In this document: piece by piece, positions 43,601 through 60,705 of the stretch
How the letters are laid out: every line of letters begins with the position of its first letter
How positions within the stretch are numbered: the stretch's first letter is position 1
Source of the DNA: a virus
Virus genome (UHGV): UHGV-1351279
Reading direction: 5' to 3' (one strand)
Length of the DNA stretch: 64,000 nucleotides
The notes under the pieces: model-generated
Told to the model about the DNA's origin: nothing
What the model saw: the letters and a program-made list of their open reading frames with translations, nothing else
Databases searched by the model: none
Program-made: the position numbers and the translations under genes

Positions 43601-46600
43601 TTAGAAAAGATAGATTTTAATATTCCTTTATGGTTATCATCAGGAAGTAATAAATTTGAAGCTTTACTTCAAGCTATCATATCTAACAGATTGATTGTGT
43701 TGAAGTTACCTGGAAACTCTCACTATACTTCCTCTTCTGAAGGTTTTAGCTTTAGAAAAGAAGATATAGTATCTTTAGAATCTATCAATGAAAATAAGAA
43801 GTCTGGAATAGTATGGTTAGACCCTAATCATACAGGAGAGTTAAGAGCTACTACTAATGAGAATGGAACTCTAAAAGAAGCTGAAGTGCTAATTCAAAGT
43901 AAGTTTAGAATTACTAAGGAAGATGGTACTACAGAGCTTATAGATTTAACTAAAACTCCTTATAGTGAAGAAGATAAAGCAACAGGTAAAAAGGTATTAA
44001 ATAAAGAAATGATAGACCAGGCATTACTCTCTATGTTTTCTTTCCGTATACCTACTTCATCACATCAGTCAGGAGCTATACTTAAAGTAGTAGGTTTCTT
44101 ACCTGAAGCAAGTGGAGACTTAATTGTAGTACCTAAAGAACATACTAAACAAATTGGGGAAGACTATGATATTGATAAGAGAAATATTTATAAGTCTAAT
44201 TATGTAGTAAGAGAAAATGGTAAGATAGAGAAACTTACTTCAGCTAATATTGAAGAAATAGTAAAAAAGAAGACTAAGAACTTACAGACACAAATTGATG
44301 CTTTGTATGATGCTGTTGGTAAAGAGTTTGCTAATAATAATAAAGTAAATGAAGATTTATCTTATTTAAGTATAGATGAACTTAGAGATATGGTTTATGA
44401 CGTCTTTGGTATAGATTTAGATGAAGAAGGTATTATAGATGATAAAGAGGTAAGAAAAGTTGCTAAAGAAAACATACTTAAAAAGAATGCTGAAAAGATT
44501 AAGACATTACATGATAGCAAACATAAATTACAGTGGAATAAATACTTTGTAGAAAAAACAACAAGAGAGAGCTTAGAAAAGAAACTCCTTGAAAATGCTA
44601 TGATTGATGTTTATAAGTCTGTATATCTAACTACTAATGATAAAGTACAAAAGAAGATAAATAAAGTTTTGTCTTTTGAAGTAGCTGGAGAAACTGCTAA
44701 ACTTATAGATAAGAAACTAAACTCAATGGAAAGTACTAAGTACTTTACTATATATGATGATTCTTATCAAAGGAAACTTATGAGATTAGGTTCTACAGGT
44801 AAATTAGGTATCTCTGTACATAGTAACACTGTAACTTTCTTATCTCAAATACAGAGGTTAGATAAACCTATTATAGTTAAGAGAACTGTTTATGATGAAA
44901 AAGGTAAACCCAGACTTGTAAACAGTGAAATGGAACTTGATGGTTTACCTTCTGATGGTACTTTAGGAGGATTTAATAATGAGTTCAAAACCCTTGATGG
45001 TATGAGACTTATTTCAGATGTAGTTGGAGAGAACCAAAACTCTGCTACAGATAATGTGAAAGCTCAAATCATGGGTAAGAGAAATGAAAATGCTTATACT
45101 ATTAATGTACTTACAATGCTTAATCTTAGAGGTTATGACATGACTAAGAATCCTGTAACATTAGATAATGGTAAAAAGCAACATTTACAGCTTACTTCTT
45201 TATTCTTATCTCAACCTATTCTTAGAAGATATGTGGAGTTACAAGAGAAGTATAAGTCTCTTACTTCTGGATATGTAAAAGATAAAGAAAATGAAATTAT
45301 AAGACAACTTATAAGAGAGTTTGATATTATAATTCCTGATAGTACTTTAAATAAGTTCAATAATGAAGGTGTTATTTTTAATGAAGAAGAACTCAGAATA
45401 CATGAAAAACAGATAACAGGTCAAGGTTTATACAATGGTCTTATAGATAATAAGAACACTCAAAATACAACTATGCAACTTGCTGTATTACAAACATTCT
45501 TAAATCTTAAAAGAGAATCTGAAGAAATAGGTGAATATCAGAAACTGATAAGTATGAACTCTACTAAACTTGGTATATCTTATTTCAACACCTTAGATAG
45601 AATAGAGATTTTAAGAAAATTGAATAATGAACAAAAGTTTGAAAATATCCAAAGCCTTGTAGGTGATTTTGAAGTAGTAGATTTTGACCTTCCTAATGAA
45701 GTAATTAAAGAGAGAATAAGAGAACTTAAAGATGATGGTTATGTATTGTTTAATTACATTACTCCTATTGCTATAAAGCCAACAACACCAGAAGGAACTA
45801 TGCTTATACACAGTTTGAAAACTTCTGAAAGTGTTTTTGATAAGTTGTATCCATATAAAAGTGCTACTGTAAAAGATATAATTGAAAAAATAACTGAGAT
45901 TGCTGGTAAGACAGACCTTAGAGGAGAGGCTTTAAATGATTTGAGATATACTATAATGCAGGAGTTTAAAGAGTTTATATACTCTTCTAAGAACAGTGGA
46001 TTATTTGAAGATGCTACAGTAAGAGAAGAAAGGGAAAGATTATTCTTTGACAGAGCAGGTAATGAATCTTTGGCTTCTTTTATAAACAGACTTCAAAAAA
46101 TGGACAATAACTTCCTGAAGAATAATGAGTTTATAAGAAGTTTACAAGCTGATGTAAGTCTTACAGGAGGTGTATCTACTATAAAGAACCTTTTTGAAGA
46201 GATGGATAAGTTCTCTCAAAGTAATAGATATAATGATTACTTGAAGATGCTTCAAGACAATGACACTATCATAGGAGAATGGAATGGTTATAAAGTAACT
46301 CCTTTCCAATTAGCTCAAGAATTAGCTACTTATGCTTACTTTGCTGACCAAGAAGGGGGTGCTACAGGGTTTAGAAATAACATCAATGCTAATTATCTTA
46401 ATGTTATAGGATTTTCTAAATATCTCAGAGATGTAAATAATGAAATATTTGGTACTATAGTTACTGATGCATTTTCTGATAAATTTGTGGAACAATTCTT
46501 TCAACATAATCCTGACCAAGCTATAACCCTTAGTCAAGATAAGTTAAAGAAACTTATAGGTGCTAAGGACAAGTTTGAAAGCATACTTATAAATAAAGGT

Positions 46601-48196
46601 TCAGAAGAAGCTTATAATCTTTGGAGGAGTAAGCCTAATAAAAGCACTTATAATGATTTTATAAATAAACTTAAAAGGTTTGAATCCCCTATTGATACAG
46701 ATAATAATGAAAAGACAGCACTTAGTGATAAGTATATTTCTATAAGGTATAATAGAGCAAATGGTAAGGCTTATAAACTATTTAAATTAGTAGATACTGA
46801 AATTACAGGAAGTGGTAGAGTACTTGTATATGAAGAGATAGCTGTTTTAGGTGATAATGGTTATAATGAGTATGATATGGAAGCTATTTATAATGATGGT
46901 TCTTTAAATCCTGTTGGAGATATAGAACCTGCTGAACCTATTATAAGTGCTAAACCTTTAGATTTATCTGAAATACAGGAAACTACTGTAGGAGAATTGT
47001 TAGGAGCTGTATTCCAGAAAGAAAGTAAGCTTAAAGACTTAATGAATGATTTATTACCTTTTATAGATAAAGATGTAAAAGTAATATTCTCTGATAACTA
47101 TAATGGTAAGAATGTATCTATAGCTACTTACATGTCTCAAGAAAATGTAATAGTAATCAATCCTATGATGAAGAATGATAATTTTGTCAAGAGACAACAA
47201 CAATTAGCTAAGTCTGAAAATTATATACAAGAGGTAGTTCTTGAAGAGATAATACACAGCATTACTGTTAGTGAATTAAGTAAATGGGGAGTAAGACAAA
47301 CTACTGAAGGAGGAAATCCTAAAGAGTTTAATTATGTAGTAAGAGATGATGCTCCTTTATATATCAAAAAGCTCAATGATTTATATGAATTAGCTAAATC
47401 TAAGATACCTTATGACCCAACAAATCATGCTACTTATCCTATGATGAATATTGCAGAGTTTGTAGCTGGTGTATTTTCTAATGGTAACTTCAGAGAACTC
47501 CTTGATAGTACTAAAGATGGGGGAGAAACATTACTTGATAAGTTTAGAAAACTCTTTAAGAATTTGATTACTTACTTAACAGGTAAGAAATACTCTGATG
47601 AGGTGATGACTACTGTTATGGAATTACTCAAAGCTAAAGGTAGAAGTACAGAGTTTGTAACTACAGATAGAAGTACCAAGGAGTTTAAGAAAGCTGAAGC
47701 AGCTGATAAAGTGAAGACTATTCTAAGACAACTTAAAGCTGAAGATGTTAATTTCAAAGATGAGTTATCACCATACTCTCCTAAGCAACTTAGTCAATAT
47801 GCTTACAGAAAAGCTTTCTCTGATAATATAATTAATGATTTGAAAGCTGGTAAGACAATATTTGTAAATGAGAAAAACAGTAGAAATAATGTTGAGAAAA
47901 AGTATATTCAAGATATTATAGACCTTATTTTAACTGTACCTGGAATGAATGAGGATAACAAAGGAGAAGCTATGGAATACAAAAAAGTAAGAAATGATTT
48001 GTATATGTTGAAAATAAAAGATACTTTTGCAGAGAAACTTGCTAAATTGGATTCTGTATCTCCAGAGAATTTTGATTACACAGGATTTAATTTACAGCAA
48101 GCTATAAATCATATTATGAAAGAGAACCCTTCATTTACAACAAAGGATTTAAAGAATAAATTAAAAGAAATTGGTCTTATAAAAGAAGATTGCTAA
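34670..48196 (+). CDS. 4508-aa megaprotein containing a virion-RNA-polymerase-like domain (two-barrel RNAP beta-prime-type catalytic loop)
   Basis: Uninterrupted 13.5-kb ORF. Residues ~3125-3169 (nt 44042-44176) read FRIPTSSHQSGAILKVVGFLPEASGDLIVVPKEHTKQIGEDYDIDKR. This parallels the R-x-P-T-L-H-R...NADFDGD loop of multisubunit RNAP beta-prime and the D-[FY]-D-x-D loop of crAss-like virion RNAPs. There is a K/E-rich coiled-coil segment at about nt 36780-37030. Confidence 0.6.
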   Translation: MEKPSNNDKKVALNSLFNAIDRTVQEDSRKRVGGHKTVRDLEKTLGIKANSISTYNDQMSEVKRLVGADAFVDTGIDYTQNLAANQSDSEAFTRGAAMLGKGFVSGALQSFASWDFGSIRDMATGDTSKEFGNALTESSLAKWAKDMTGLEIYQNGDDFGSSKYWARFIGQQGFTLGIMAEMALEQGLLAYVTGGAGNVAGAASKSRLIYNLLTGVNGLYGGVREAWMNGLETQENTYNKYIQLGFDQETAKKRASEAAAIGFRMEVGPIMLLNGIQSMATFGRFASKGLNKALEESMDFGVSSAVGKLGSIFEKSSNKFVRNAGMLFTDSVSEGVEEGYQTWAGNYAQDELQKRHLGFGTDEPFWNEEMRDSILMGALSGGMMAGFGKAVQKFGDWYSGRSKAINEATEAFMKDVTSNSVTAIKELNDASLAYQKAFETYNKDKTKDNRKAMNEAKKNLIIAQEKQGTAQVLEAMELDHLKGNENNEVFNAHIEQIDNAIKALQSNDTDKLKGLGFIDENGQSVTGLTNAEMIKMLQSDKDKALKTKKRFEDHYQHTTTDLGTIKKLVTIETKIDTFEEMKKEVEGKIGNYRNGNQVYSQLSEDGKELYGLYLRKNALEGLKERGGISKNQEVELDTINHKLQSIADANGKKNVNDLYSVQDANILRRDMIGIQAQQENYIEHYAYETEIDKLYESLEHNSKQDVIKQNIKERRKAQREAAKAVRDFNKLEREQEKERKRLEKEKAKAKNKEEKEKAQKEIDELAKEQKETQEKKDKAQKIESIENETGNKASDTEKEELINNGNFIYAEEDTAYKFDFEEGIVPEEPTKEPTETTDNAVEEAMSLKELIAKGLIKLGVPTPADVSPFDDDGVDIDANNEDFAFTPIDDSEPVIYTEPFEIIDFDANANLEGDFESRRETAIKFVQEILKELGLDEPDFEDYIKYFIDRKGKKITDDVFPGLVKMWELAGYSLDNVNSVYDKFFNTATAASDFALELMNNGTLVNKFNEGSEATAIASQAPVIATKGNKVIRDDRGTLGAGLEVIEDTATENPNPKAAHLGVKYETVTLPNGVKAKRYSEVELNNDPFIDNHLVLDKDFLSPGRVLDVRVAEDALVTVWDKDSNGNKIKKTVKFKDLGLQPGTPEYNAKVPIVAYYGDKPVFFLHDHEWYNRTNISNRHGMQDQIIKDGSRMINEVRRQILEGGKTQIKITDNLFGNMLNLSNAAREKDQQPITLNEASKGSQIVIAEKTNTIKAGGELVPTTDLVNDFEKNPLIPGAAYEIREIGDGKKILLSVASNRTGELDSMPDIGYNTVKFGIIAAFYLLNKNDSRFESTTAGITKKNNVVHPTIEIKNADGTVEKRIVTVKQKLESMGMTEDKAKKIADAIHIAYGIDILEDAHLLFELFTTTATGKTSKQQFFQNATNPNNKQKVILLPKKSSEGKISVNYHVKGYSTAPVTLSGKNLNAIEMKLNVKPDDQEGFISFFNFMNALFRPSKEDAEKGITKGAFSYNNFMPNDKQLGSEKTLVNITNNGEITSYQSTNGNSTYSDFAKDTLKTNIKSFEIEGADGNKKSILDIQPMIYYEVVDGEVTAPQATSAPNVTPITPTITPPKQEVNVGQVVTAAKEEGEQSDFTKRKAEALKSVEEMKKLIGTEVGGKIFTEEMYKNALDFALSEFNEDHDASVSITMNQYHLIQSTKNNRIDGISILEENELLNTLFYSTLERVNLNKHEVTLSSIQRSLYNSLKIIEESKEQFEIMAKINPVLASRMSARVEKLKAILNQKEKLIGKDGSLMIMLNRFFGEEIEFNEEALEDSDESIISIQDGDGTEKNYSESSLEKNVKITFSSSLKILLARVKAKNNQGTNKLNSLQLPMFEDIDNVVMTLQEVLVKGNSDFDFVLQELKNRGKSTRPNAQVYAELHRLFADAPKHIQNEILYKMTSDVLSMYMILMQEGAYNNYTKLALQNANSSASDIRLVREWKNNFLNSELFFEKDGEKYYNMERVDLLNKEINSLRNDYKELLVDNPEHVQKLNSVLRKLGINLSENTLKELLSTEGNNLLSNVGSLSHIQRVLYEVNSFYQTPRKDPNTGKEIHINPKYTDEGLSLYDVEATNIRNNYANLEIDLNGSIIEKSYRVAGKTIQGTIQKMMAYDAVFELKDSSNPKAEQLLQVPYSSRNYMLRMMVPEDSKKEDSVRKAEEIRNRFDIGFVSLEAIKERHKKTFGSRKITDIPDTDNVLAQLGFFQNTVKKLTHKIPGYKSLSFRLAKVMNPTLSDKNQMLLYDMAVVDVTNSVLSNTFADKGNKYNIGEDLLNFLTDQIFESELDRIISSFKEKTNIKKYDKAAQFFLAFPGFNTLELTMEDGTKMSLIEFLHINKGLAKGEENIAIKRPAIREAAKQYLADLVKEKVKDKVNFDNNTGEWFDNNFISFDEKGVNFENNFLDDSYLASKVKGSPEKSVEVAAYDFVINNMLAQNNVYQMIAGDTALYSENPSKFADKKEPKNISKIDFVGLAKKTAENIDKRMAMLIAPGNKLANSLHEKYLQIMVNDPVTITSTSRQLIKQYYGEVTKENEQVIAAIEEFEEKAEKARGVYLDELRNEYNNKYVKINDKFVSVDSDGEIHYSDSIEAAESLGKVLKGVDGYQTFLKENNKEIGDYFDIEGTDAQELTTWQEHLDILLRQGRLTEEERNDIKAVYDKLSKGETLDSKELKVVMQPIKPVYAGSTIVRNDKNEPIVNRVTYIKSSSFPLLPQLTAGLKIDAVRKHMEKLQEHHKGNRKVRLSFQTANKVGSIDSTLSIHDLYNKTFDELFNKSTLLNDNTLELERKHFKIQQDTPYKTDKNMAKGKDDSIIMGSQMWKIILGNGINKIEEAIFPNTFDAAIINEYNSQVSEKDRVVINSTKSNLTGKDLDKIKSYVENKYIRNEKDKLYRQLGLDPETNRPKDEAKFMKTLQELLISEAKSRNYTDGLLDGLEVFEDLEKIDFNIPLWLSSGSNKFEALLQAIISNRLIVLKLPGNSHYTSSSEGFSFRKEDIVSLESINENKKSGIVWLDPNHTGELRATTNENGTLKEAEVLIQSKFRITKEDGTTELIDLTKTPYSEEDKATGKKVLNKEMIDQALLSMFSFRIPTSSHQSGAILKVVGFLPEASGDLIVVPKEHTKQIGEDYDIDKRNIYKSNYVVRENGKIEKLTSANIEEIVKKKTKNLQTQIDALYDAVGKEFANNNKVNEDLSYLSIDELRDMVYDVFGIDLDEEGIIDDKEVRKVAKENILKKNAEKIKTLHDSKHKLQWNKYFVEKTTRESLEKKLLENAMIDVYKSVYLTTNDKVQKKINKVLSFEVAGETAKLIDKKLNSMESTKYFTIYDDSYQRKLMRLGSTGKLGISVHSNTVTFLSQIQRLDKPIIVKRTVYDEKGKPRLVNSEMELDGLPSDGTLGGFNNEFKTLDGMRLISDVVGENQNSATDNVKAQIMGKRNENAYTINVLTMLNLRGYDMTKNPVTLDNGKKQHLQLTSLFLSQPILRRYVELQEKYKSLTSGYVKDKENEIIRQLIREFDIIIPDSTLNKFNNEGVIFNEEELRIHEKQITGQGLYNGLIDNKNTQNTTMQLAVLQTFLNLKRESEEIGEYQKLISMNSTKLGISYFNTLDRIEILRKLNNEQKFENIQSLVGDFEVVDFDLPNEVIKERIRELKDDGYVLFNYITPIAIKPTTPEGTMLIHSLKTSESVFDKLYPYKSATVKDIIEKITEIAGKTDLRGEALNDLRYTIMQEFKEFIYSSKNSGLFEDATVREERERLFFDRAGNESLASFINRLQKMDNNFLKNNEFIRSLQADVSLTGGVSTIKNLFEEMDKFSQSNRYNDYLKMLQDNDTIIGEWNGYKVTPFQLAQELATYAYFADQEGGATGFRNNINANYLNVIGFSKYLRDVNNEIFGTIVTDAFSDKFVEQFFQHNPDQAITLSQDKLKKLIGAKDKFESILINKGSEEAYNLWRSKPNKSTYNDFINKLKRFESPIDTDNNEKTALSDKYISIRYNRANGKAYKLFKLVDTEITGSGRVLVYEEIAVLGDNGYNEYDMEAIYNDGSLNPVGDIEPAEPIISAKPLDLSEIQETTVGELLGAVFQKESKLKDLMNDLLPFIDKDVKVIFSDNYNGKNVSIATYMSQENVIVINPMMKNDNFVKRQQQLAKSENYIQEVVLEEIIHSITVSELSKWGVRQTTEGGNPKEFNYVVRDDAPLYIKKLNDLYELAKSKIPYDPTNHATYPMMNIAEFVAGVFSNGNFRELLDSTKDGGETLLDKFRKLFKNLITYLTGKKYSDEVMTTVMELLKAKGRSTEFVTTDRSTKEFKKAEAADKVKTILRQLKAEDVNFKDELSPYSPKQLSQYAYRKAFSDNIINDLKAGKTIFVNEKNSRNNVEKKYIQDIIDLILTVPGMNEDNKGEAMEYKKVRNDLYMLKIKDTFAEKLAKLDSVSPENFDYTGFNLQQAINHIMKENPSFTTKDLKNKLKEIGLIKEDC

Positions 48197-51100
48197 TGAG
48201 TACTTGTAAAGTAGAATTTAAAGGTTTTAATATTGATTCAAGTAGTTTAGATAACTACTTGAATCAATTTACCATTGATGGTAAACAAAAGATAGATGGG
48301 GCTAAAAACACCATAAGCTATTTATTAAGTAATGCAAAAGACAATAAGTTAGGAGTACTTAAACTTGCTCTTAACTCTAATAAAGCATACATTAAAGATT
48401 TAGCTAATATGATGCTTAATACTAATAGAAAATTCTATGCTGAGGTAGAGATAAACAACAACCTTAAAGGGTTTTCTAAGTATAATGCTAATGACAATAA
48501 AATCTATATCAATGTAGATGCTATATCACAGAGGTTTTCTGAAAGTGCAGAGGAATATTTGTATGAAAGAATAGTTCATGACTTTATACAAGGATTTGCA
48601 AATAGAGAGCTAAAAAAAGCATATGAAGATGCTAATAGAGACTCTCCTTATATGAAGAATATAATCAACTTGTTTAAAGAATATTCAAAGAGTGTAGACC
48701 TTAAGGAATATAATGTATTCAAGGATAGTGTAAATAAAGAACCTTTGTTGGACCCAAGAAGTGAAAGAAGTCTTATAAGAGAGGGTTATGCTGAAGAGAC
48801 TTACAGAGCTATTACTAATCCTGCTGAGTTCTTATCTTATGGTTTGTCTAATAGTGAGTTTAGAAATACACTGAGAAAGCAAAACTTATGGCAAAAGTTT
48901 GTTTCTTTGTTAAAAGACCTTTTAGGTATATCTCAAGATAATAATGACTTAGAGTACCTTTATAAAAACTTAGATAGTTATTTAAAACAAGATGACCCTT
49001 ATACATTACATAGTGGAGGTGCAATTGGAGCTGATACTGTTTGGGGCCAGATAGGTAAACAATTTGGTATATCAGAAGAAAATCAAAGACATTATAAAAC
49101 TGCTGATATGCCTAATGGTAATACTCAAATAACTGAGCAAGATTATAGAGAAGGTAGAAAAGAAGCAGCTAAAGCAGCTAATAGAATGTTTGGTTATGAC
49201 AAAACTGAAGTAAACATGGGTTTGCTTATAAGAAATTGGTCTCAAGTAAAATATTCTGAAGCTGTATATGCTGTTGGAAGATTAGTTCCAGCTGGAGAGA
49301 ATGCTTTTCCTGATAATAAAAAAGAAGATACAAGAATTGCAAAAAACCCTACTGTAACAGGAGGTACAGGTTATGCTGTAAATATGGCTATTCTTAATAA
49401 TAAACCTGTGTATGTATATAATCAGTATGACAATCCAACTTACCCAAAAGGTTGGTATAAATATGATTCTAATATAAATGATTATGTACCTACAGAGACA
49501 CCTACACTTACAAGACACTTTGCTGGTATAGGTACAAGAAATATCAATGAAGATGGTGAAAAAGCTATTCAAGATACTTATGAAAAAACTTTCAATAAAA
49601 AACAACAAACAGGTTCTCAGAGTAGTACAGATAGTAATATAAAAGTAGAACAACAAAATAGATATTCTGTACAAGATGTGAGAAATAATCCTGACAAAAT
49701 ATTTGTATTTGGTGATAACTCCATAAGACAAGGTACAGGAGGTCAAGCTCAAATAAGAAATGAGCCTAATGCAGTTGGTATAATGACTAAAAAGTTTCCA
49801 AGAAATACACCTGATGCCTTTTTATATGATAGTGAATATGCAGAAAATATTAAGAGAATAAATGAAGATATAGAGAACTTAAAGCAAAAAGTAAAAGGTA
49901 AAACTGTAGTTTTTCCTACAGATGGTATTGGTACTAATTTAGCTGATATAGCTCATACAGCACCAAGAACTATGGAGTATCTTATAAATAGATTAAGAGA
50001 AGAGTTTGGACTAAAAGATTCAGACCCTTTTATAAAATCTATGCTTAATAAACTAAATGAAGCAAGAAATGGTTTTGGACAAAAAATGCTTATAGATGGA
50101 GAAATTTATTCATATAATGTAGATAAATTAAAAGCTTATAAACACACATTTGTTGGTTCAGGTATAAATGCTAAACAAAATGCTACTGAAGTTACTGACC
50201 CTAATTTAATAAAAAAAATATCTGATAAGTATTTTGAAACAGATAATAATAATAATAATGAAAGTAATACATCCGATAAAGTAGATGATATATTAAATGA
50301 GTTTGAGTTTTTAAAAACAAATGACCCAGAGCAAAGTAAAGAAGTTGAGATATTAGAACCTTTTGGAGTGTTTCCAAAAAATACAGGTTTCCTAATTGTA
50401 CATACTCCAAGCGCAAAAGGTAATACTGTTGTTAGAATAAAAACAAAAGATGGTAAATACTATCAGTATGAAATAGTTAAAGTTGGTGCTGGTGAATCAG
50501 TTTCTGTTTTTAAGTTTGACAAAGAGGGTGATAGATATGTAAAAAAATCTTTAGAATTAAATGAAAAAAACTCTTTCATTAAAAGCTTTGTAATAAAATT
50601 TGTTGGAATAAGTAATGAGCAAGCAAACAGAGAGGATATAAAAAGTATCTTTACAAAAGCTTTAGCATTTTTGACTAATAAATCTAAGAATAAAGAAGGG
50701 TATAGAGAGCTACTCAATAATGAGTTTGTAAAGAGTGACTTGCTACACATACATAATGTAAATTTACAAGACACAATAGCACAAATTAATTCATTAAAAG
50801 CTGATGATAAAGTTGAAGTTGATAGGATTAATTATCTTTTAGATTATCTTACAAATGATTTAAATAACAACGATAAAATATGGTATTTTGGTAGGTATGC
50901 TGAAAATGATTTATTTGGTCTTTTAGTTAATGAAGAAAAACTTACAAAACTTTCATCAGAAGATGCACTCTTAAAGTATGAAGAACTTAAACAGCTATTA
51001 TCAAGAAAATTTAAAGAGCTTGTATATGATTACAATGGTGATGTAAAAAAATGGCTATTTTCTTTATTAGATGAAAAAGAATTAGATGGTGATTTACTGA

Positions 51101-53592
51101 ACAAGTTAAGAGAGTTGAGAGGTGATGAAGAAACAATAACTCCTACACAACCTACACCTCCTCCAGCACCAAAAGAACGTTATGGAGAAGAATTTCAAGT
51201 AGACCAATTTGTATTTTCTTATAATCCTGAGACAGGTAAGTACTATCAGCATTTTAAATCTAAAAAAGGAGAAGTAAAAGAACTTACTAATGAAAAGCAA
51301 CAAAACAAAACTTTTTTAAAGTACATAGAAAAACACCCTGAGCATGCTGAAATAGTAACTTATGAAAATACAGGTAATAAATATGTTTATGATAAGAAAA
51401 GAGATAAAGTAATATCTTTATCTACAGCAGACACCATAGTTCAACCTGATATTGTTGATAAAGTAAAAAACCATGAAAAATACGCAAGGGAAGAAAAGAT
51501 AGAAGGTTTAAAGAAATACATAAAACAATATTTAAAAGATTTCAAGGATATGTCTTTTGCAAGACTTTATCAATTATTGATTAATCAAGGTACTATAACT
51601 CATGAAGATGCACATGATTTTTCTGAAGCTTTTAATCAAGCTCAACAAGAAATAAATGAAGAAAAAAATACAAGAGTCTATAAATTAAAAAGCCAACTCC
51701 CCAGTGATGTATTAGAGTATTTAAAAAATACAATAAGTGAGTACTATGATAAAAATGATAGCAAAGATGTAAACACTATCTACAGAGATTTTATGAAATC
51801 CCGTGAAGGTAAGAATGGAGGTTTTATATTTGATGTACATGGTTTGGGTAGTTTTAATATACATAATGATATATTTACAGAGCTTTTTAAAGAAATAAAA
51901 AAAGAAAAAGAGCTTGAAAAAGAAGCTAAAAAACCCCCTCAATATGAACACTCATTTTCTTACAAAGGTATAACAATACCTACTAAATTTCAATTATCAG
52001 AAGAGCAAGAACAGGCTCTTATAACTCTTATAGAAAATATTACAAGTGGAGATACAGAACCTATAACTTTAAGTGGCTATGCTGGTACTGGCAAAACTTC
52101 TGTGATAGGATATTTGGAAGATTATTTAAAAAGGAAAAGAGGTTATAAATTTCTTTATGGCGCACCTACACATGCTGCTACACTATATTTAGGTTATAAC
52201 ACTAAGAAAATGCCTTTTACAATTGCTTCTTCTGTTGTAAAAAGAATAGATGATTTTGGTAATGTAACTTACACAACATCTTCAAAAGTTGACCAAGCAT
52301 TATCAGACTACGACCAGAATATCTTTGTAGTAGATGAAGTTTCTCTAATGGATTCAACCACTATGGATAATTTCCTTTCTGTAATGGATAGAAAAGGTGT
52401 AAAAGTTATATTCATGGGGGATAAAATGCAATTACCTGAAGTAGCATCTAAAGGAAAAATAAACCCTGAAACAAAAAATTCTATAAAAGATGTTTCTAAG
52501 GCTTTTACTGATTTTAAATTAATACAATTATCTCAAGTACAAAGAACAAAAGATAACTCAATTTTGAGGGTTCTAACAGAGATTAGGAATAATCCTGATG
52601 GTGTATTACCTGTTGTAGATAATACAGAGACTCTACAGTTTTTTAATAAAGATGATAACACTAAAGGTTTTTACAAAGGGTTTAGAACAGCTTATGAAGC
52701 AGACCCTGAAGAAGCTATTTATATTACTTATACCAATGAAGATGTAAAGAACTTCAATAAATCTTTTAGAAAAGCTTTTTATGGTGAAGATGTAGATGGC
52801 TTAGTTGAAGGTGAATCTGTAATAGGATACTCTGGTTACAACAATAAAAAGATTAAGTCAAATGACTTAGCAAACAGTATAAAATACACTGTAGATGATA
52901 TTAGTTATGATGGTTCTGAAGTAAAAATAACATTAAAATCTAATGCTATACAAAAATTAGCTGATTTGCATTCACCAAATAGAGAGAATGATAAAACTGT
53001 ACAAACTACTTATTTACAGATGTCCAGAACAGACTCTTTAGATATGAAAAATCTTACAGATAAAGATTTTTTAAAGAATAATAGTAAACTATCTGAAATA
53101 TTTAGAGATGTCTATGATTTGAAGAAGATGGCTTTAGGAACAAACAGATGGAAAGATTTTAGTGAGACACTTGCTAAGATTACAGGGGGACTTGCTAAAT
53201 TAGAGATTGGAGATGATTATTTCTACAATCCATATACAAATATGATGGAAAAAGAAAGCTCTGTAAATTGGTCTAATCCTCAAATGGCTAATCTAAAAAA
53301 GAATTATAAAGAGCTTTTTATGAGTAAGAGTATTGACTATGGTTATGGTATAACTATACATAAAGCACAAGGAGCTACTTATAAGAATGTATTCTTTAAT
53401 TCTACATCAACGGAATTTGCTAAAACAGAAATCCATGAAAATGGAATGCAAATAAGTACAGAAGGTAACTCTCTTAACTATGTAGCTATGTCAAGAGCAA
53501 GTGAGAAACTTTTTGTTCTTCACTCTAATAATATAAAAAGATTAAACAATGATGACTCTATAGAGTTGTCAAAAAATTGCAGTGTATTCTAA
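48196..53592 (+). CDS. ~1799-aa protein with N-terminal DprA/LOG-like (SLOG) Rossmann motifs and a C-terminal Dda/RecD-like SF1B helicase domain
   Basis: HSGGAIGADT (about nt 49009-49038) and TGGTGYAV (about nt 49353-49380). A second Rossmann-like FVFGDNSIRQGTGGQAQ segment (about nt 49700-49745). Helicase Walker A LSGYAGTGKTS, Walker B VVDEVSLMD and motif V/VI ITIHKAQGATY (about nt 51930-53592). The ORF-track start 48190 is TTG. ATG 48196 overlaps the upstream stop as TAATG. Confidence 0.55.
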   Translation: MSTCKVEFKGFNIDSSSLDNYLNQFTIDGKQKIDGAKNTISYLLSNAKDNKLGVLKLALNSNKAYIKDLANMMLNTNRKFYAEVEINNNLKGFSKYNANDNKIYINVDAISQRFSESAEEYLYERIVHDFIQGFANRELKKAYEDANRDSPYMKNIINLFKEYSKSVDLKEYNVFKDSVNKEPLLDPRSERSLIREGYAEETYRAITNPAEFLSYGLSNSEFRNTLRKQNLWQKFVSLLKDLLGISQDNNDLEYLYKNLDSYLKQDDPYTLHSGGAIGADTVWGQIGKQFGISEENQRHYKTADMPNGNTQITEQDYREGRKEAAKAANRMFGYDKTEVNMGLLIRNWSQVKYSEAVYAVGRLVPAGENAFPDNKKEDTRIAKNPTVTGGTGYAVNMAILNNKPVYVYNQYDNPTYPKGWYKYDSNINDYVPTETPTLTRHFAGIGTRNINEDGEKAIQDTYEKTFNKKQQTGSQSSTDSNIKVEQQNRYSVQDVRNNPDKIFVFGDNSIRQGTGGQAQIRNEPNAVGIMTKKFPRNTPDAFLYDSEYAENIKRINEDIENLKQKVKGKTVVFPTDGIGTNLADIAHTAPRTMEYLINRLREEFGLKDSDPFIKSMLNKLNEARNGFGQKMLIDGEIYSYNVDKLKAYKHTFVGSGINAKQNATEVTDPNLIKKISDKYFETDNNNNNESNTSDKVDDILNEFEFLKTNDPEQSKEVEILEPFGVFPKNTGFLIVHTPSAKGNTVVRIKTKDGKYYQYEIVKVGAGESVSVFKFDKEGDRYVKKSLELNEKNSFIKSFVIKFVGISNEQANREDIKSIFTKALAFLTNKSKNKEGYRELLNNEFVKSDLLHIHNVNLQDTIAQINSLKADDKVEVDRINYLLDYLTNDLNNNDKIWYFGRYAENDLFGLLVNEEKLTKLSSEDALLKYEELKQLLSRKFKELVYDYNGDVKKWLFSLLDEKELDGDLLNKLRELRGDEETITPTQPTPPPAPKERYGEEFQVDQFVFSYNPETGKYYQHFKSKKGEVKELTNEKQQNKTFLKYIEKHPEHAEIVTYENTGNKYVYDKKRDKVISLSTADTIVQPDIVDKVKNHEKYAREEKIEGLKKYIKQYLKDFKDMSFARLYQLLINQGTITHEDAHDFSEAFNQAQQEINEEKNTRVYKLKSQLPSDVLEYLKNTISEYYDKNDSKDVNTIYRDFMKSREGKNGGFIFDVHGLGSFNIHNDIFTELFKEIKKEKELEKEAKKPPQYEHSFSYKGITIPTKFQLSEEQEQALITLIENITSGDTEPITLSGYAGTGKTSVIGYLEDYLKRKRGYKFLYGAPTHAATLYLGYNTKKMPFTIASSVVKRIDDFGNVTYTTSSKVDQALSDYDQNIFVVDEVSLMDSTTMDNFLSVMDRKGVKVIFMGDKMQLPEVASKGKINPETKNSIKDVSKAFTDFKLIQLSQVQRTKDNSILRVLTEIRNNPDGVLPVVDNTETLQFFNKDDNTKGFYKGFRTAYEADPEEAIYITYTNEDVKNFNKSFRKAFYGEDVDGLVEGESVIGYSGYNNKKIKSNDLANSIKYTVDDISYDGSEVKITLKSNAIQKLADLHSPNRENDKTVQTTYLQMSRTDSLDMKNLTDKDFLKNNSKLSEIFRDVYDLKKMALGTNRWKDFSETLAKITGGLAKLEIGDDYFYNPYTNMMEKESSVNWSNPQMANLKKNYKELFMSKSIDYGYGITIHKAQGATYKNVFFNSTSTEFAKTEIHENGMQISTEGNSLNYVAMSRASEKLFVLHSNNIKRLNNDDSIELSKNCSVF

Positions 53593-53603
53593 AATAAAAT
53601 AAT

Positions 53604-56600
53604 ATGTCTTGTAAAAATACAGTCTTAAACAGTAATAGTAGAAATGTAGTGATGAAAGGTCTTTATGAAAAAGACCTTATCACTGCCTATAAGAATGTTG
53701 GTAATACAACAATAATACAAGTATCTAACATTAAGGATTTCAATAAAAGGAATCAACTTTTAATAGATAAAATACAGGAATTACAACCTCAATTTTTATC
53801 TTCTTTTGGAAGTATGTATAACACCACTCCAACAGAATTATTCTTTGATAAAGTAAATGGTAGTCAAGAACAATTTGCTATAAAGAATTATATGTTTGAA
53901 AGGCTATCTAACTTTAAAATGGTAGATTTTAATAAGCTACAAGAAACTTTAGATAGCTTAGGTAAAATAGCTGTACAAGTATCAAATGGTAATATAGAAA
54001 TTAGAAACCATAAAATACACGGTTTTACTAAAGAAGAAGTAGATGCTATAGTAAAAAAGTATAATACACTTTCTTCTGAAAAACAACAATACATAAAAGA
54101 TGAAATTAGAAATAGTAGAAATATTGTAGATAAAGTAGCTTCAAAACTTTATGATGCTTATGAAGATAGACTTAACCTAATTACTGATATTGATTCAAAT
54201 TCAATGAGAATAGGTAATAAAAACTCTAATAATATTATTAAAGTAAAATCTAAGGAAGTTGAATCTAATAGAGAGCTTCAAGAAATAAAAGATGAAGTAG
54301 CTAATAATAAAGCTAAGGAACTTACAAGAAAAAACACTGAGGATAGCAATAAAAGGAGTAATGATTATAATACTGATGGTGATATATTGCCTTCAAATGA
54401 TAATTGGGACTCAAACTCTGACCCTAATATTACACCTCCTGTAACAGATAATTATACAGAATATACAAATTACTTAGATGCACTACTAAAAAGTGTACAG
54501 AAAAAGAAAGGTGAGTTAATAAAAGAACTCAAAAATCCAAAAAACAAGAATAAAACTAAGACTATTGATGACCTAAATAAGCTAATAACTGAAGAGGGTA
54601 AATTACAAGAGTACTATAATAATGCTATATCTGGTGAAAATGAGAAAAATGTAGAGACATTATTTAATGAATTAGATGATTTGTCTCATAAACTTGATGT
54701 AATAGATAGTGGTAGCATAAAGAATCTTGGAGATAGGGTTGATTTCCTTTTTGGATTTATTACAGGTACAAAATATGGAAGCAATGAAAATGTTGATTAT
54801 GCAATAAGTGAGAATCCTGAACTTAGGTCTAAGGTACTTTCTCTAATGCATAAATATAATAGTAAGCTCAATGAAATATCTAATAAAATCATTGAAGAAG
54901 ATGTTACTTATCAACATAATGTACTTAATAATATTGCATTTAAAAGAGCTGATGGTAAAATAGACAAAGATAAGGTAAATGATTTATTTAAAGTAAAAGA
55001 TGATATAAACTTTTTTGAGAAAGCCCTTTTAGGGGTATCTCAAGCAAGTACTAAAGAATCTATTACTCCTCAAATATTAAAGTCATACCTTGAAAAAAAT
55101 ATGTCTCATAGGACATCTGAAGCTATTGCTTATAAGGATAGATTATTAGCTGCTATTGAGAAATTAGAAGCAAAAGGTATTACTGATTTTAGCTTTATAT
55201 TTGAGAAATTTTTATCAGGAGCAAGAACAGGTAATATCATTAGTAAATATACTTCTGAGTATAGGAGAAAGCTTTATAAATACTTTAATATGGAAGTTGA
55301 GGGTAATGACTATGCTTCTTATTATAGTAAGAAAATACAATGGCTAAAGGCTAATGCTGATGTTATAGACTTTAGAAAAATAAAGGCTTTTAAAGACCTT
55401 TATGGTAAGAACTATCCTAATGAATTTATCTTCTCTGACCAGGAAATGGAAGAATATGAAAATAATCTTAGAAAACAACTTGGTAAAGTGTATGATAAAG
55501 AGATAGACAAAGTAAATAGTTGGATAGAAAATTATGAGCTTACTAAGCAAAATTATGAATCTAAATATGAAGCAGAGAGAAATAACCCTTTTGTATTTCT
55601 AAGGTCTTATTTTGGAGATTCTCCAACTACAGCAGCTGCATTTAATGGTACAGGAGGTATATCAAGTATATTTCCTAACCTTAATGATATTGTATTTGTA
55701 CCAAGAAAAACCTTTACTGAGGGCTATGACTTTAATGGAGAAGAAATAACCTCTGATACAGGCTATTATAATAAAGACTTTGATAGAATTGAACAGTCTG
55801 ATGAAATGTTTGAGTATTGGTCTGTATTAGAAGATATATATTCTCAATACATAAATCCTACCTATGACATATCAGGAATGAGCTTTGCTAAGATACAAAA
55901 GGAGTTTCTCGAAAAAGTAAGTGATGCAAAAGGTGCTTCTAAAGCAGGTACTCTAATATCTAAAGGTATACAAGCTTATAGAGAGTATTTCTATGAAGTA
56001 GGTGTAGGTAATAAGAAAGATAAAGGTATTGTAGAGAACTATTCTGATAAGACAAAACAAGAAATAAAGGCTCTATCATCAGCTCTAAAAGCTAAATCTG
56101 TTGATGAGCTTAAATCTATGGCAAAAGATTTAGGTCTTACTATACCTAATAACATAACACCAGAGCAATTAGTTCATGAGATTGCAAGTGAAATGACTTT
56201 AAGGAATTATTCTTCTGATATTAATAAGATAACAGGGGCTTTAATTGATATGGTAGCTTTACAAAAAGCCAGAGAAGATACTTTACCTATAGCTAATATC
56301 TTACTTGAGAAACATAAGAAAACTGTAGGAGAAAGTGAAAGGGAGAGAAAAAATAGTATTGAGAAATTAGAACACTATATCAATAAAGTAATTAAGAATG
56401 AGCATGAGCATGCAAGAGGTACAGAACAACTAATAGGTAAAGAGATTAAAACACCTGGTTGGATAGAGATGTTACTTGATAAATTAGGTGTTATAGGTTG
56501 GCTTAAAAATAAAGTAGAAAAGAATAGGTTCTTTTACCTTTATAGTGATTCAGAAAGACAATTATTAAAAGAACTCCAGAGTGCAAGAGAAAGAGGTCAT

Positions 56601-58616
56601 AACTCTAATATTAGTGATAGTTTCTATCAAGATGGTATGAGATATGAACTTATAGTGGATGAGCATGGGGGTACATATTTTGCAAGCTATAAAGATAAGC
56701 ACACAGGAGAAGATAAAATAATTGATATAACTCCTGAGCAATATGAAGAAGCTTATCAAAAGAATATAGAAAGTAAGATACAAAGTTTGGGTCTTGACTT
56801 AAATAGTGCTGGTATTATTCAAGGAATACTAAAAACTATCATTTTTAAAGGATTAGGACTTAACCCTATTGGAGGTATCAGAAACAGGATGGAAGGTAAA
56901 AATACCAACCTTATAATGGATATGACAGGGTATTACTGGACTAAAGGTAATATTAGACATGCTCATAATTTCTTAGCCTTTGCTAATATGTTGCATATTT
57001 TACCTGATAGGATTTCTCCTGAACACATGGGTAAATACAAACAACTAAAAATCTTTAGGTCTTTAGTAGAGAAGATGAGGATTGTTCAAGATAGAAAAAA
57101 CCCTTTAGAGAGAAATATTGAGCAGTCTAAGTTCTCTATGGAGAAATATACTAATGTTTTTTCTTGGGCTGTAGATAACCCTGAGTTTAAGAACCAGGGT
57201 TCTGTGGTTCTTGCTATACTAATGGATACTAAGATAGAGAACAATAAAGGGGAATTAGTACCTATATTTGATGGTTCTAAATTTACTGTATTTGAAGAAA
57301 CTAAAGATGGTTCCTTAAGATTAAAAGAAGAGTTTAGGTCCGAAGAGAATATAAGGAATTGGGAAAATATGGAGGTAGGATTTAATGAAGAGGATAATAA
57401 CCAATTCTTTCTAACAAGAAATAAAATGAAGACAGCCATATCAAGAACACAAGGTAACTATGATGATATGGATACTATTTGGGCTTCAAGAACTATATGG
57501 GGTCAAGTTCTAATGATGTTTAAAAAATGGATGCCAGAACACTTTATGCAGAGATTTGCATCAGGACAGAATTTTGACTTATTTACAGGAAAGAAACAAA
57601 TGATGGGTAGATACAGAGCTATGTGGAATAATAATCCTGCATTGGCTGTAACAGGACTTTCCTCTATATTAGTAGGATTAGGTTTAGGAGCTGGAGCTTT
57701 AACTGTAGGAGGTATTACAGGAGTTGTAGCTTTTAAGTTTATACATAATATGATGGGAGGAAATAAAGGTATCTTAGAAGAAGCTAATAATATAGGAGGA
57801 TTAGTAGCTTTTACTAAGTCAATACTTATTAGTACTCTTAATTACCCTTTAGAGCTTATCAATCTAAAGACAGGTATTCCAACAAAATATGATGGATATT
57901 CTAAATTAAATCTTACTGAAGAGGAAATAGGTACTTTAAGGTCTTTAGCTAAAGAAATAGCTGTAAAACTAACCTGGTTAAGTATAATGTTACTTGCTAA
58001 ATCTCTTACTTGGGATGATGATGATGATGATGACTCAGATAAAAGGAAGTTACATAATTTCTTAGATAATGAGCTTAATACAACTATTAATACATTACAA
58101 TCCTGGTCAGACCCAGGTGCTTTATATGATGATGCATCAAGAAGCTCTTTTCTTTTATATTGTGATAATGTAACAAAACTATTAAAGAGTATTATGTTAC
58201 TCAATGGAGGGGATGCTTCAAAATATGCTTTAAAGGTATCTCCTGTACCATCTTTCTTTACACACATGGTATCTAAAGATGGTGATTTACTAATGCCTTG
58301 GCAAAATGATTATGAATATGATAAAGGTAAAACTTATTGGGATGGATTTATAAAAGAAATAAAAGGTAGAGGACATGAAAAATGGTCTAAGAAAGAATAC
58401 AATAAAATAAGAAAAGAGAAAAAAGCTGAAATGTTAGAACAAGGTATGAGTGAAAAAGAGATTAAAGAAGCTCTTGGTACTAAACCAAAAGGAATGTCCT
58501 ATGTAGATGCTTTAGATTATATGGAAAATGGAGGATTACCTCCACAAGAACCTAAGAAAAAAGGTAGACCTAAAGGTAGTAAAAACAAGAAAAAAGAGGA
58601 TTCAGCTCAAAAGTAA
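53604..58616 (+). CDS. giant virion protein (1670 aa) with a C-proximal cluster of 3 TM helices, a poly-Asp run and an AT-hook-like basic tail (KKKGRPKGSKNKKK)
   Basis: ORF track. TM segment ALAVTGLSSILVGLGLGAGALTVGGITGVVAF. DDDDDDDSD is encoded by (GAT)7 at 58014-58034. GRPKGS at about nt 58555-58600. Confidence 0.55.
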   Translation: MSCKNTVLNSNSRNVVMKGLYEKDLITAYKNVGNTTIIQVSNIKDFNKRNQLLIDKIQELQPQFLSSFGSMYNTTPTELFFDKVNGSQEQFAIKNYMFERLSNFKMVDFNKLQETLDSLGKIAVQVSNGNIEIRNHKIHGFTKEEVDAIVKKYNTLSSEKQQYIKDEIRNSRNIVDKVASKLYDAYEDRLNLITDIDSNSMRIGNKNSNNIIKVKSKEVESNRELQEIKDEVANNKAKELTRKNTEDSNKRSNDYNTDGDILPSNDNWDSNSDPNITPPVTDNYTEYTNYLDALLKSVQKKKGELIKELKNPKNKNKTKTIDDLNKLITEEGKLQEYYNNAISGENEKNVETLFNELDDLSHKLDVIDSGSIKNLGDRVDFLFGFITGTKYGSNENVDYAISENPELRSKVLSLMHKYNSKLNEISNKIIEEDVTYQHNVLNNIAFKRADGKIDKDKVNDLFKVKDDINFFEKALLGVSQASTKESITPQILKSYLEKNMSHRTSEAIAYKDRLLAAIEKLEAKGITDFSFIFEKFLSGARTGNIISKYTSEYRRKLYKYFNMEVEGNDYASYYSKKIQWLKANADVIDFRKIKAFKDLYGKNYPNEFIFSDQEMEEYENNLRKQLGKVYDKEIDKVNSWIENYELTKQNYESKYEAERNNPFVFLRSYFGDSPTTAAAFNGTGGISSIFPNLNDIVFVPRKTFTEGYDFNGEEITSDTGYYNKDFDRIEQSDEMFEYWSVLEDIYSQYINPTYDISGMSFAKIQKEFLEKVSDAKGASKAGTLISKGIQAYREYFYEVGVGNKKDKGIVENYSDKTKQEIKALSSALKAKSVDELKSMAKDLGLTIPNNITPEQLVHEIASEMTLRNYSSDINKITGALIDMVALQKAREDTLPIANILLEKHKKTVGESERERKNSIEKLEHYINKVIKNEHEHARGTEQLIGKEIKTPGWIEMLLDKLGVIGWLKNKVEKNRFFYLYSDSERQLLKELQSARERGHNSNISDSFYQDGMRYELIVDEHGGTYFASYKDKHTGEDKIIDITPEQYEEAYQKNIESKIQSLGLDLNSAGIIQGILKTIIFKGLGLNPIGGIRNRMEGKNTNLIMDMTGYYWTKGNIRHAHNFLAFANMLHILPDRISPEHMGKYKQLKIFRSLVEKMRIVQDRKNPLERNIEQSKFSMEKYTNVFSWAVDNPEFKNQGSVVLAILMDTKIENNKGELVPIFDGSKFTVFEETKDGSLRLKEEFRSEENIRNWENMEVGFNEEDNNQFFLTRNKMKTAISRTQGNYDDMDTIWASRTIWGQVLMMFKKWMPEHFMQRFASGQNFDLFTGKKQMMGRYRAMWNNNPALAVTGLSSILVGLGLGAGALTVGGITGVVAFKFIHNMMGGNKGILEEANNIGGLVAFTKSILISTLNYPLELINLKTGIPTKYDGYSKLNLTEEEIGTLRSLAKEIAVKLTWLSIMLLAKSLTWDDDDDDDSDKRKLHNFLDNELNTTINTLQSWSDPGALYDDASRSSFLLYCDNVTKLLKSIMLLNGGDASKYALKVSPVPSFFTHMVSKDGDLLMPWQNDYEYDKGKTYWDGFIKEIKGRGHEKWSKKEYNKIRKEKKAEMLEQGMSEKEIKEALGTKPKGMSYVDALDYMENGGLPPQEPKKKGRPKGSKNKKKEDSAQK
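58014..58034 (+). repeat. (GAT)7 trinucleotide microsatellite encoding poly-Asp
   Basis: gatgatgatgatgatgatgac read directly from the sequence. Confidence 0.7.
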
Positions 58617-58624
58617 AAAAAATA

Positions 58625-58652
58625 AAGAAGATGGATAAAAAACCATCTTCTT
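58625..58652. terminator. bidirectional rho-independent terminator AGAAGATGG-ataaaaaa-CCATCTTCT between the convergent blocks
   Basis: 9-bp stem with T-runs on both strands. Confidence 0.6.
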
Positions 58653-58725
58653 TATTTGTGTATTAATTTTAATTTTCTTACTTTTGCACAAGGAATTTTT
58701 CTTATTTTTCGTTTTGCCACTTGTA

Positions 58726-58751
58726 AGAGTGTTAGAGGTATCTAACACTCT
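58726..58751 (+). terminator. second hairpin AGAGTGTTAGA-ggta-TCTAACACTCT plus T-run. It overlaps the stop codon of the leftward dNMP kinase gene.
   Basis: 11-bp stem followed by TTTTTCTTT on the + strand. Confidence 0.4.
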
Positions 58752-59316
58752 TTTTCTTTATATCTTTTACAATTCCTAATACTCTAAGAAACAAATCTCT
58801 TATAGTGCCACTGTTATCTATAACATAGTCAAAAGCATCATCTGAGAGATATAAAAGGTCAGTTTCTGAGTAATGAGTAGTATCTAATTTTACTCTATCA
58901 CTTTTTACTCTAATGAATATAGGTTTAAGCTCCTTTAATAGATTGTACTCATGTCTAAATCTCATGTCAGTAATGACATTAAACTCAAAACTTGACTCTT
59001 CTATTTGTTTTAGTATGATTTTAGCAAACACTTCTTTTCCAAAGTTCTTACAAAACATATCACCTATCATTGTATAATAGTTTCTTGGAGTCATTGCCTT
59101 AGATATATTAGTAAGTCCAATATCATGTACAGACCTATCCTTATAATCATCAAGTGTTTCAACAGGAACACCTAATACAATAGAAGTTATCTCCTTTATA
59201 GGTTTTGCAAAAGCAAAGGTTTTACAAGTAGTATAATGAAACATATCTTGCATGAAGTTTGCTACAGTGTCTTTCCCTACACCTTTATTTCCTGATATTA
59301 CTATTAATGTACTCAT
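58732..59316 (-). CDS. deoxynucleoside monophosphate kinase (T4 gp1-like P-loop kinase)
   Basis: N-terminus MSTLIVISGNKGVGKDTVANF is closely similar to the T4 Dnk N-terminus (IFLSGVKRSGKDTTADF). Confidence 0.55.
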   Translation of the reverse strand: MSTLIVISGNKGVGKDTVANFMQDMFHYTTCKTFAFAKPIKEITSIVLGVPVETLDDYKDRSVHDIGLTNISKAMTPRNYYTMIGDMFCKNFGKEVFAKIILKQIEESSFEFNVITDMRFRHEYNLLKELKPIFIRVKSDRVKLDTTHYSETDLLYLSDDAFDYVIDNSGTIRDLFLRVLGIVKDIKKKSVRYL

Positions 59317-59771: not shown

Positions 59772-59772
59772 A

Positions 59773-60543: not shown

Positions 60544-60574
60544 ATAAATATTAATTAAGTTTATAAATAAAAAA

Positions 60575-60603
60575 CCTTGTGTGGTTAGGAAGTCCACACA
60601 AGG
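60575..60603 (-). terminator. minus-strand terminator CCTTGTGTGG-acttcctaa-CCACACAAGG followed by TTTTTTATTT
   Basis: 10-bp stem followed by a U-run on the minus strand. Confidence 0.5.
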
Positions 60604-60705
60604 TAATTCAAATTAAATAAATTATGATGATAAATAGGGCGCGTAAACACAAAGTTTTTTGAGTTACAAAAGTACAATAAAATATTGTAAGTATATAATT
60701 TTTAA

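Follow-up and report, generated by a model that had tools for sequence, protein, structure and literature searches.

Why would a phage encode helicases of one family twice, once as a free-standing enzyme among its replication genes and once as the last domain of a giant protein? This question is raised by the virus UHGV-1351279, of which we analysed a stretch of 64,000 nt, hereafter the window, that comprises most of the genome of a crAss-like podophage with a GC content of about 30%. On the plus strand, within a run of giant genes, a 1798-amino acid (aa) protein (48196-53592) ends in a helicase domain, and a paralogous, free-standing Dda-like helicase of 523 aa is encoded on the minus strand (61675-63246). 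The answer that we favour, with a probability of roughly 55%, is that the 1798-aa giant is a polyvalent, virion-packaged cargo protein that is ejected into the host and brings a ready-made helicase along with the DNA.

The original prediction for this locus had proposed a Dda/RecD-type helicase of superfamily 1B (SF1B) fused to the C-terminus of a giant of about 1800 aa, and Pfam, PHROG 325 and BLASTP comparisons all bear this out. The fused domain comprises aa 1254-1784 of the giant (51955-53547, plus strand) and matches PF13604 (AAA_30) with 74.3 bits (cutoff 27), PF13245 (AAA_19) with 51.3 bits (cutoff 25.1) and PF05970 (PIF1) with 48.7 bits (cutoff 25.9); the free copy reaches 84.7, 56.6 and 38.5 bits for the same three families, in each case above the gathering score. 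Both copies match PHROG 325, 'Dda-like helicase', with E-values of 5e-56 to 1e-58. The helicase motifs of the fused copy read GYAGTGKTS (the Walker A motif or P-loop, 52075-52101, plus strand), APTHAAT, VVDEVSLM, MGDKMQLPE, QVQRTKD, ITIHKAQGATY and YVAMSRASEKLFV. For an AlphaFold2 model of the fused domain (pLDDT 89.2, pTM 0.86), T4 Dda (3UPU) is the best structural match in the PDB, with E 2e-22 and TMt 0.70, ahead of RecD2, Pif1 and RecD; by these matches the domain has the arrangement known from solved SF1B structures, two RecA-like domains with 1B/2B accessory domains. All of the top 49 PDB matches are SF1B-type proteins (Dda, DSH9, RecD2, Pif1, RecD, Helitron helicase), and UvrD, of the SF1A type, appears first at rank 50. 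By its motifs, profile matches and modelled fold the fused domain is an SF1B helicase. The equivalog cutoffs for RecD and RecD2 were missed by a wide range, with 34.7 bits against 310 for TIGR01447 (fused copy) and 70.1 against 500 for TIGR01448 (free copy). The label 'Dda-like' is fair, but orthology with T4 Dda is not demonstrable: the two share superfamily and fold, with a structure-based identity of 17-18% and a phmmer E-value of 4.5e-8, and the fused domain is longer by ~90-110 residues. T4 Dda is a free-standing early protein, whereas the fused helicase is part of a 1798-aa multidomain protein in a block of virion genes; it is the free copy, in the replication block, that is placed like an accessory phage helicase.

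The paralogy of the two copies is equally clear. BLASTP aligned residues 8-523 of the 523 residues of the free helicase, that is, essentially the whole protein, with residues 1256-1786 of the giant (nt about 51955-53547, within the originally predicted 51930-53592), at 239/541 identities (44%), 64% positives and E 5e-144, well over the 30% identity that had been set as the lower limit for the claim. Every stretch that the original prediction had quoted as near-identical is found in this alignment, among them SYKGITIPTKF/EYKGISIPTKF, ITLSGYAGTGKTSVI, VLPVVDNTET/VLPIIDNTET, IDYGYGITIHK(A/S)QGATY and TEGNSLNYV(A/G)MSRAS, but near-identity is confined to such motif blocks. Likewise, the 'close paralogue' of that prediction is a true paralogue, but an identity of 44% does not make it a recent one.

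With the whole giant as query, the exact protein (P0001) was retrieved together with at least 24 orthologues, 1025-1798 aa in length, whose C-terminal helicases are 65-98% identical to the fused copy of the window and only 42-46% to its free copy. None of the 25 fused or the 21 free sequences deviates in the key residues of the seven SF1 motifs (I, Ia, II, III, IV, V and VI). In comparisons with close relatives, the fused domain has a dN/dS of 0.11-0.17, the free copy one of 0.05-0.09 and the neighbouring giant one of 0.14-0.15, and the free copy is the more conserved of the two, with 93-97% aa identity in relatives. We infer from these values that the fused domain is active as an ATPase/helicase, under somewhat looser constraint than the free copy. 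In some alleles the P-loop is interrupted by an intein, at GxAG|C...HN|(T/S)GKTS (equivalent to nt 52086/52087 of the window), and inteins are typical of enzymes that need to be restored by splicing. Carriers among the fused copies are P0003, P0007, P0014, P0015, P0021 and P0025, the last with a mini version of ~145 aa; among the free copies, in which the site lies at about aa 50, they are P0088, P0092 and those of loci L006 (~19536-20954) and L008 (~19581-20999). Neither helicase copy of the window, including the P-loop of the fused one, contains an intein. The intein termini, CL(A/S)YGTKILMFDGSYKEVQD ... NLFILEDFTVTHN, are near-identical and occur, depending on the genome, in the fused or in the free paralogue, a distribution that, judged by the sequences, looks like homing between paralogues.

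The reading frame of the giant is open without break from TTG 48190 or ATG 48196 through 53592. ATG 48196 is the true start, because all orthologues begin with MSTCKV; it shares one base with the TAA stop of the 4508-aa gene upstream (TAATG). From the N-terminus, the protein consists of a zincin-like module (aa 1-267; 48196-48996), a SLOG/DprA-like Rossmannoid cassette (aa ~269-466; 49000-49593; phrog_768, E 2e-7), a DUF7831 cassette (aa ~486-598; 49651-49989; PF25176, E 4.5e-38 and 130 bits, cutoff 27), a middle segment that matches no family (aa 681-990; 50236-51165), a linker (aa 991-1245; 51166-51930), of which the first ~140 residues (~993-1132) are kept in orthologues, and the helicase, all on the plus strand. 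Pfam found nothing significant in the N-module, in the middle segment or in the first 1443 aa of the 4508-aa giant. Residues ~722-915 (50359-50940) are allele-specific, with no counterpart in the 24 orthologues and no family match, and may be a further, unrecognised cassette; short beta-hairpin motifs of the type 'GKYYQ(Y/H)' repeat at aa ~755 and ~1010. The motif HEDAH at aa 1136, a candidate for an active zincin motif, is not kept in orthologues and was rejected as a chance occurrence. A separate translation of the helicase from an internal start was rejected as well, given that no methionine lies near the domain boundary (KKPPQYEHSFSYKG).

We read the N-module as the part that marks the giant as a member of the virion giants. 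It is kept in all orthologues, and in a profile-profile comparison (hhalign) it aligned with aa 191-345 of gp65 of phage phi14:2 with a probability of 96.2% and E 2.3e-9, the homology being limited to aa ~68-255 of the giant. At the position of the zincin motif HExxH, the window has HDFIQ, aligned to HEIMH of gp65, and aligned paralogous modules have HETIH or HEYIH; the modules that bear HExxH have SprT-like Pfam matches, all of them sub-threshold. The model of the N-module (pLDDT 74) contains the strand-strand-strand-helix core of zincins, and a Foldseek search against viral models (BFVD) returned phi14:2 gp65 as top match, then an orthologue of the giant that UniProt lists as 'ATP dependent DNA helicase [CrAss-like virus sp. 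ctcfK29]'; further matches were internal virion/ejection proteins, LT_GEWL proteins and LPD/PolyVal proteins. By alignment and model, the N-module and the zincin-like domain of gp65 are homologous, the catalytic motif of the former being degenerate or dead. The phi14:2 record annotates gp65, gp66 and gp67 as found in virions by tandem mass spectrometry, and all three have been described as virion proteins, gp65 with a zincin-like protease domain (Drobysheva et al., bioRxiv 10.1101/2020.03.07.982082).

The gene directly upstream, encoding a 4508-aa giant (34670-48196, plus strand; phrog_16227), is the counterpart of the phi14:2 virion RNA polymerase (RNAP) gp66. It contains the crAss-type RNAP motif as DYDID at aa 3165 (nt 44162-44176) and matches gp66 with 23% identity over 908 aa (E 9e-27; aa 2657-3530 of the giant); the RNAP assignment rests on this motif and the BLAST match, because phmmer retrieved no PDB sequence with either the 4508-aa or the 1670-aa giant. 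The same protein has a similar zincin-fold module near its C-terminal end (aa ~4117-4280, nt ~47018-47509, probability 91%) and is 28% identical to the gp65 zincin region over 137 aa (aa 4188-4323). It appears to merge genes that are separate in phi14:2, namely gp66 and the zincin region of gp65. Its zincin motif is degenerate, too (LEEIIH), and no giant of the window has a conserved HExxH; gp32 of phage FpV4 keeps HEVIH. One helicase copy thus lies beside the RNAP giant in a rightward block and the other in a leftward replication-type block, as had been proposed.

The cassettes between the N-module and the helicase come and go among orthologues, which carry both SLOG and DUF7831, one of them or neither; the helicase is always present. 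The SLOG cassette is 36-44% identical to segments of the virion RNAP of Klebsiella phage Pylas and of a giant of the crAss-like phage cr113_1. In the N4-like virion RNAP of Pylas it sits about 985 residues into the protein (L010, 12001-12663; gene 9049-20508), and in the gut Crassvirales phage cr113_1 at the C-terminal end of a 4328-aa giant (L011, 8001-8525); this one cassette therefore travels among ejected giants of podophages from unrelated families. Distant giants of ~3000 aa join a related helicase with SLOG, DUF7831 and NADAR (P0028-P0032, P0103). One of them, P0030, is a 2986-aa giant on a 155-kb contig (L004, 10001-18961), flanked by giants of 2024 and 2044 aa, with the related helicase in mid-protein (aa ~2066-2601) and SLOG after it. 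Helicase and SLOG are thus paired again in this larger phage, though arranged in another order. The helicase part itself appears to have been exchanged, too. In the giant of locus L002 (P0026; L002, 13631-15331), the N-terminal part is about 50% identical overall to that of the window, mainly due to the SLOG (60%) and DUF7831 (77%) cassettes, with only 27% for the N-module proper. Its helicase shares 31-38% identity with both window copies and falls outside the clade that these form with their relatives; therefore, the helicase part was exchanged at least once or evolved much faster in that lineage.

Taken as packaged cargo, the giant would be a late product that enters the capsid together with the other giants and leaves it with the genome at ejection. 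Ahead of all phage gene expression, its helicase would then sit on the incoming DNA as an ATP-driven 5'->3' translocase for single-stranded DNA (ssDNA), most likely opening or stripping the incoming duplex and displacing host proteins, and the free copy, made only after early transcription, would serve replication or recombination. That the gene is expressed late, that its product is packaged and ejected, and what the helicase acts on and does are all inferred from the gene's location, its domains and its homologues. The gene lies between the RNAP giant and the last giant, its start overlapping the stop of the former, and the turnover of cassettes around a constant helicase fits the injected multidomain 'polyvalent' proteins, large products whose genes accompany those of the virion and which are presumed to reach the host together with the DNA (Iyer et al. 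2017, PMC5512222). The SLOG and DUF7831 cassettes, related to nucleotides or ADP-ribose, might meanwhile blunt defences that depend on nucleotide signals.

The giant shares with polyvalent proteins (PMC5512222) the large multidomain build, the neighbourhood of morphogenesis genes, the predicted entry into the host with the DNA, swappable cassettes, a helicase and, less clearly, a zincin-like module, and it combines several unrelated domains that vary among homologues (zincin-like, SLOG, DUF7831 and helicase). Its zincin-like module matches LPD/PolyVal proteins in structure, with a degenerate HExxH (HDFIQ) and no match to a Pfam LPD family. It differs from the class, which is dominated by superfamily 2 (SF2)/SNF2 helicases with a methylase, in its SF1B Dda-like helicase, and further in its dead zincin motif, its place in a crAss RNAP giant block and the helicase paralogue in the same genome. 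UvrD-type SF1 helicases have been found among polyvalent proteins in a few actinomycete plasmids only (PMC5512222). DarB of phage P1 is a packaged methylase with an SF2 helicase, whereas the giant has no methylase domain and an SF1B helicase, and it is not of that type. Like the conjugative relaxase-helicases TraI and TraA, whose RecD-like SF1B helicase enters the recipient with the DNA, it is large and multidomain, ends in an SF1B helicase and would travel with DNA into a new cell; unlike these it has no relaxase domain, its profile matches to TraA_Ti and TraI are weak, that to TraA_Ti (58.2 bits against a cutoff of 590) covering the helicase part only, and its vehicle would be the virion rather than type IV secretion. 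A similar arrangement is that of phi14:2 gp65/gp66/gp67 (PDB 6VR4), with the same block and strand, an N-module like gp65 and a neighbouring giant with DxDxD like gp66. Compared with it, the gene of the 1798-aa giant is an extra one, inserted after the RNAP giant and before the last giant; a helicase is missing from the giant block of phi14:2, FpV4 and the gut crAss phages, and gp65 keeps HEIMH in place of HDFIQ.

The opened DNA would be the single-stranded template preferred by a QDE-1-like virion RNAP. Phi14:2 gp66 transcribes ssDNA or denatured DNA efficiently and native double-stranded DNA poorly, and QDE-1, to which it is related, depends on the helicase QDE-3 and on RPA. The functional analogy is with QDE-1/QDE-3 of Neurospora, a two-barrel RNAP preferring ssDNA together with a DNA helicase, although QDE-3 is a RecQ-type SF2 helicase that is not homologous to the fused SF1B helicase, and the partnership with the RNAP is here hypothetical. 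That the injected helicase is a dedicated partner of the virion RNAP, handing over its ssDNA template, seems to us rather unlikely.

Several points weigh against the packaged-cargo reading. FpV4 has a 4287-aa giant directly followed by gp33, with nothing like the 1798-aa protein between them, phi14:2 also lacks the gene, and gut crAss records contain the free helicase only. As the gene is absent from FpV4 and phi14:2, it is an addition to the giant block in one lineage, and since these two and the classical gut crAss phages do without it, the helicase is not a general requirement of crAss virion RNAPs; the gene lies in the giant block and is homologous to gp65 (in the N-module only), but is not conserved across Crassvirales. 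Packaging is deduced from gene position and one homologous module, in a clade known only from oral metagenomes. The fused protein would need to pass the tail channel unfolded and then refold, as is assumed for other crAss cargo. Finally, the helicase exchange in L002 fits a swappable effector as well as a dedicated RNAP partner.

This last point leads to the strongest alternative, that the giant is ejected as an anti-defence effector with no special link to the RNAP: the helicase, much as P1 DarB does, would act in cis on the incoming DNA so that it evades restriction or attack of the RecBCD type, and SLOG and DUF7831, with NADAR in relatives, would destroy or sequester immune nucleotide signals. 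The swappable, lineage-specific cassettes, the distant giants that pair the helicase with NADAR, SLOG and DUF7831 and the exchange of the helicase part in the L002 lineage are all in line with such a role, and so is the patchy distribution of the gene, which is typical of counter-defence genes; apart from the DarB precedent, the SLOG domains of viruses have been predicted to degrade signals resembling cyclic ADP-ribose (PMC5512222, PMC9503650). However, the helicase was never lost in 25 orthologues and is under steady purifying selection, which suggests a core rather than an optional role, the giant contains no methylase or nuclease-inhibitor domain, and SF1B helicases are not known to counter any defence system. 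Between opening the duplex for the RNAP and a cis anti-restriction or anti-nuclease role we favour the former, with the latter about equally defensible; as an account of the giant as a whole, the anti-defence effector is possible but on the unlikely side.

We consider it unlikely, too, that the giant remains unpackaged as a cytoplasmic late or middle helicase for recombination, replication restart or packaging-associated functions, with SLOG and DUF7831 as sensors, so that the two paralogues would share work inside the cell rather than divide it between virion and cell. Such a role would suit a protein whose packaging is a prediction and whose gene is dispensable in related lineages, T4 Dda is, according to textbook knowledge, a non-virion accessory helicase, and SLOG-SF1 helicase fusions have been read as sensor-regulated DNA-processing enzymes (Iyer et al. 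2022, PMC9503650). Against it stand the N-module, homologous to a virion protein and structurally nearest to internal/ejection and PolyVal proteins, the position of the gene, wedged between giants with phi14:2 virion counterparts and with its start overlapping the upstream stop, and the homologous SLOG cassettes that ride on bona fide ejected virion RNAPs.

Whatever its role, the fusion is old, contrary to the original prediction of a recent intragenomic duplication with domain capture. In a neighbour-joining tree (476 trimmed columns, 200 bootstraps, sequences pooled from three protein searches, the later two of which did not list the fused orthologues), the fused clade was monophyletic in 100% of replicates, the fused and free copies together in 97.5% and the free copies alone in 64.5%; the fused clade is sister to the entire free clade, and it grouped with the free copies of the window and L001 in 0/200 bootstraps. 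The fused copy is 44-52% identical to every member of the free clade, whose members are 50-77% identical among themselves. Both copies occur in the same positions in the loci of seven relatives (L001, L002, L006-L009 and L013), the answer to a question that the original prediction had posed, the free copy is kept in synteny in every close relative examined, and both coexist in relatives as far as 58-67% identity. By these comparisons the two copies are true paralogues within this phage group, and since their split is about as old as the radiation of the group, 'recent' is wrong. That the free helicase gene was duplicated recently in this genome and its copy captured by the giant gene is accordingly very improbable: the two copies do form each other's closest family, and among the matches listed from 5.8 billion proteins searched no free-standing protein is nearer to the fused helicase than 48%, so that no closer donor emerges, but their identity is just 44%, the best free-standing matches of the helicase domain (P0078/P0081, 47-48%) exceed the copy in its own genome, and at least 25 distinct orthologues share the fusion, which is no nearer to its own free copy than to those of other phages. 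The next clades out mix fused and free-standing forms, and the tree therefore fits a transfer from free to fused as well as one from fused to free. Least credible of all is an artefact of assembly or annotation (loss of a stop codon, a chimeric contig) or a decaying helicase remnant, for which only the general frequency of such artefacts in metagenome assemblies speaks, whereas the same continuous ORF is found in at least 25 independent assemblies (JGI, ENA, Logan, NCBI) and its catalytic motifs are all invariant, with the low dN/dS given above.

The phage that carries this pair of genes comes from the human mouth, with at least one related contig labelled as human oral metagenome (habitat label via P0009), and near-identical and related contigs of ~90-97 kb are present in JGI, ENA and Logan assemblies. 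Among isolates, the nearest to it are FpV4-type phages of Flavobacterium psychrophilum, whose major head protein is 51% identical. A megablast of 48190-58616 against INPHARED phages gave no match, so that there is no close sequenced isolate. The rightward block (plus strand) contains the genes of TerL (5587-7779), the portal (7782-10202) and the major head protein (11355-12824), then tail and other structural genes and a run of giant genes that includes one at 24066-29366. Its final gene, directly after the helicase giant, encodes a 1670-aa giant (53604-58616) that is the orthologue of FpV4 gp33; an orthology of gp33 with the 1798-aa protein was considered and rejected on this ground. The consecutive giants starting at 48196 and 53604 begin alike, with MSTCKV... 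and MSCKNT..., and the L002 orthologue with MSTCIV; this may be chance or a shared N-terminal signal. Between the convergent blocks, a terminator-like hairpin (58620-58657) with a perfect stem of 15 bp and T-runs on its flanks is likely a bidirectional terminator, as predicted from its sequence. The leftward block begins at 58732 and encodes, besides the free helicase, a dNMP kinase and an Ant/Bro protein, in keeping with replication and nucleotide metabolism. The latter is a Bro-N/ANT anti-repressor-like protein (59773-60597, minus strand); phages of this type are not known to be temperate. A scan of 47500-64000 for sigma-70 promoters and terminators found 96 against 91 expected from shuffles, which is not above chance.

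Orthologues of the giant have been in public databases under automatic names, and sporadic SLOG-SF1 helicase fusions were mentioned earlier (PMC9503650); in the literature we found no description of a helicase-bearing crAss giant, nor of a Crassvirales polyvalent protein with a helicase. The fused helicase bears on how infection by crAss-like phages starts. Their virion RNAP works well only on ssDNA in vitro, an early promoter motif is not known, and their giant cargo proteins are mostly unannotated. A clade that has added an intact helicase to its cargo, with a second copy for replication, is a testable candidate for a function in the first minutes of infection. The crAss giant block appears, moreover, as a platform for swappable cassettes (SLOG and DUF7831, with NADAR in relatives), which ties it to the idea of polyvalent proteins and to the N4-like virion RNAPs that carry the same cassette. 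Should the ejected helicase indeed serve the virion RNAP, it would be a phage counterpart of the QDE-3/QDE-1 pair, and crAss lineages would have solved the opening of the template in different ways.

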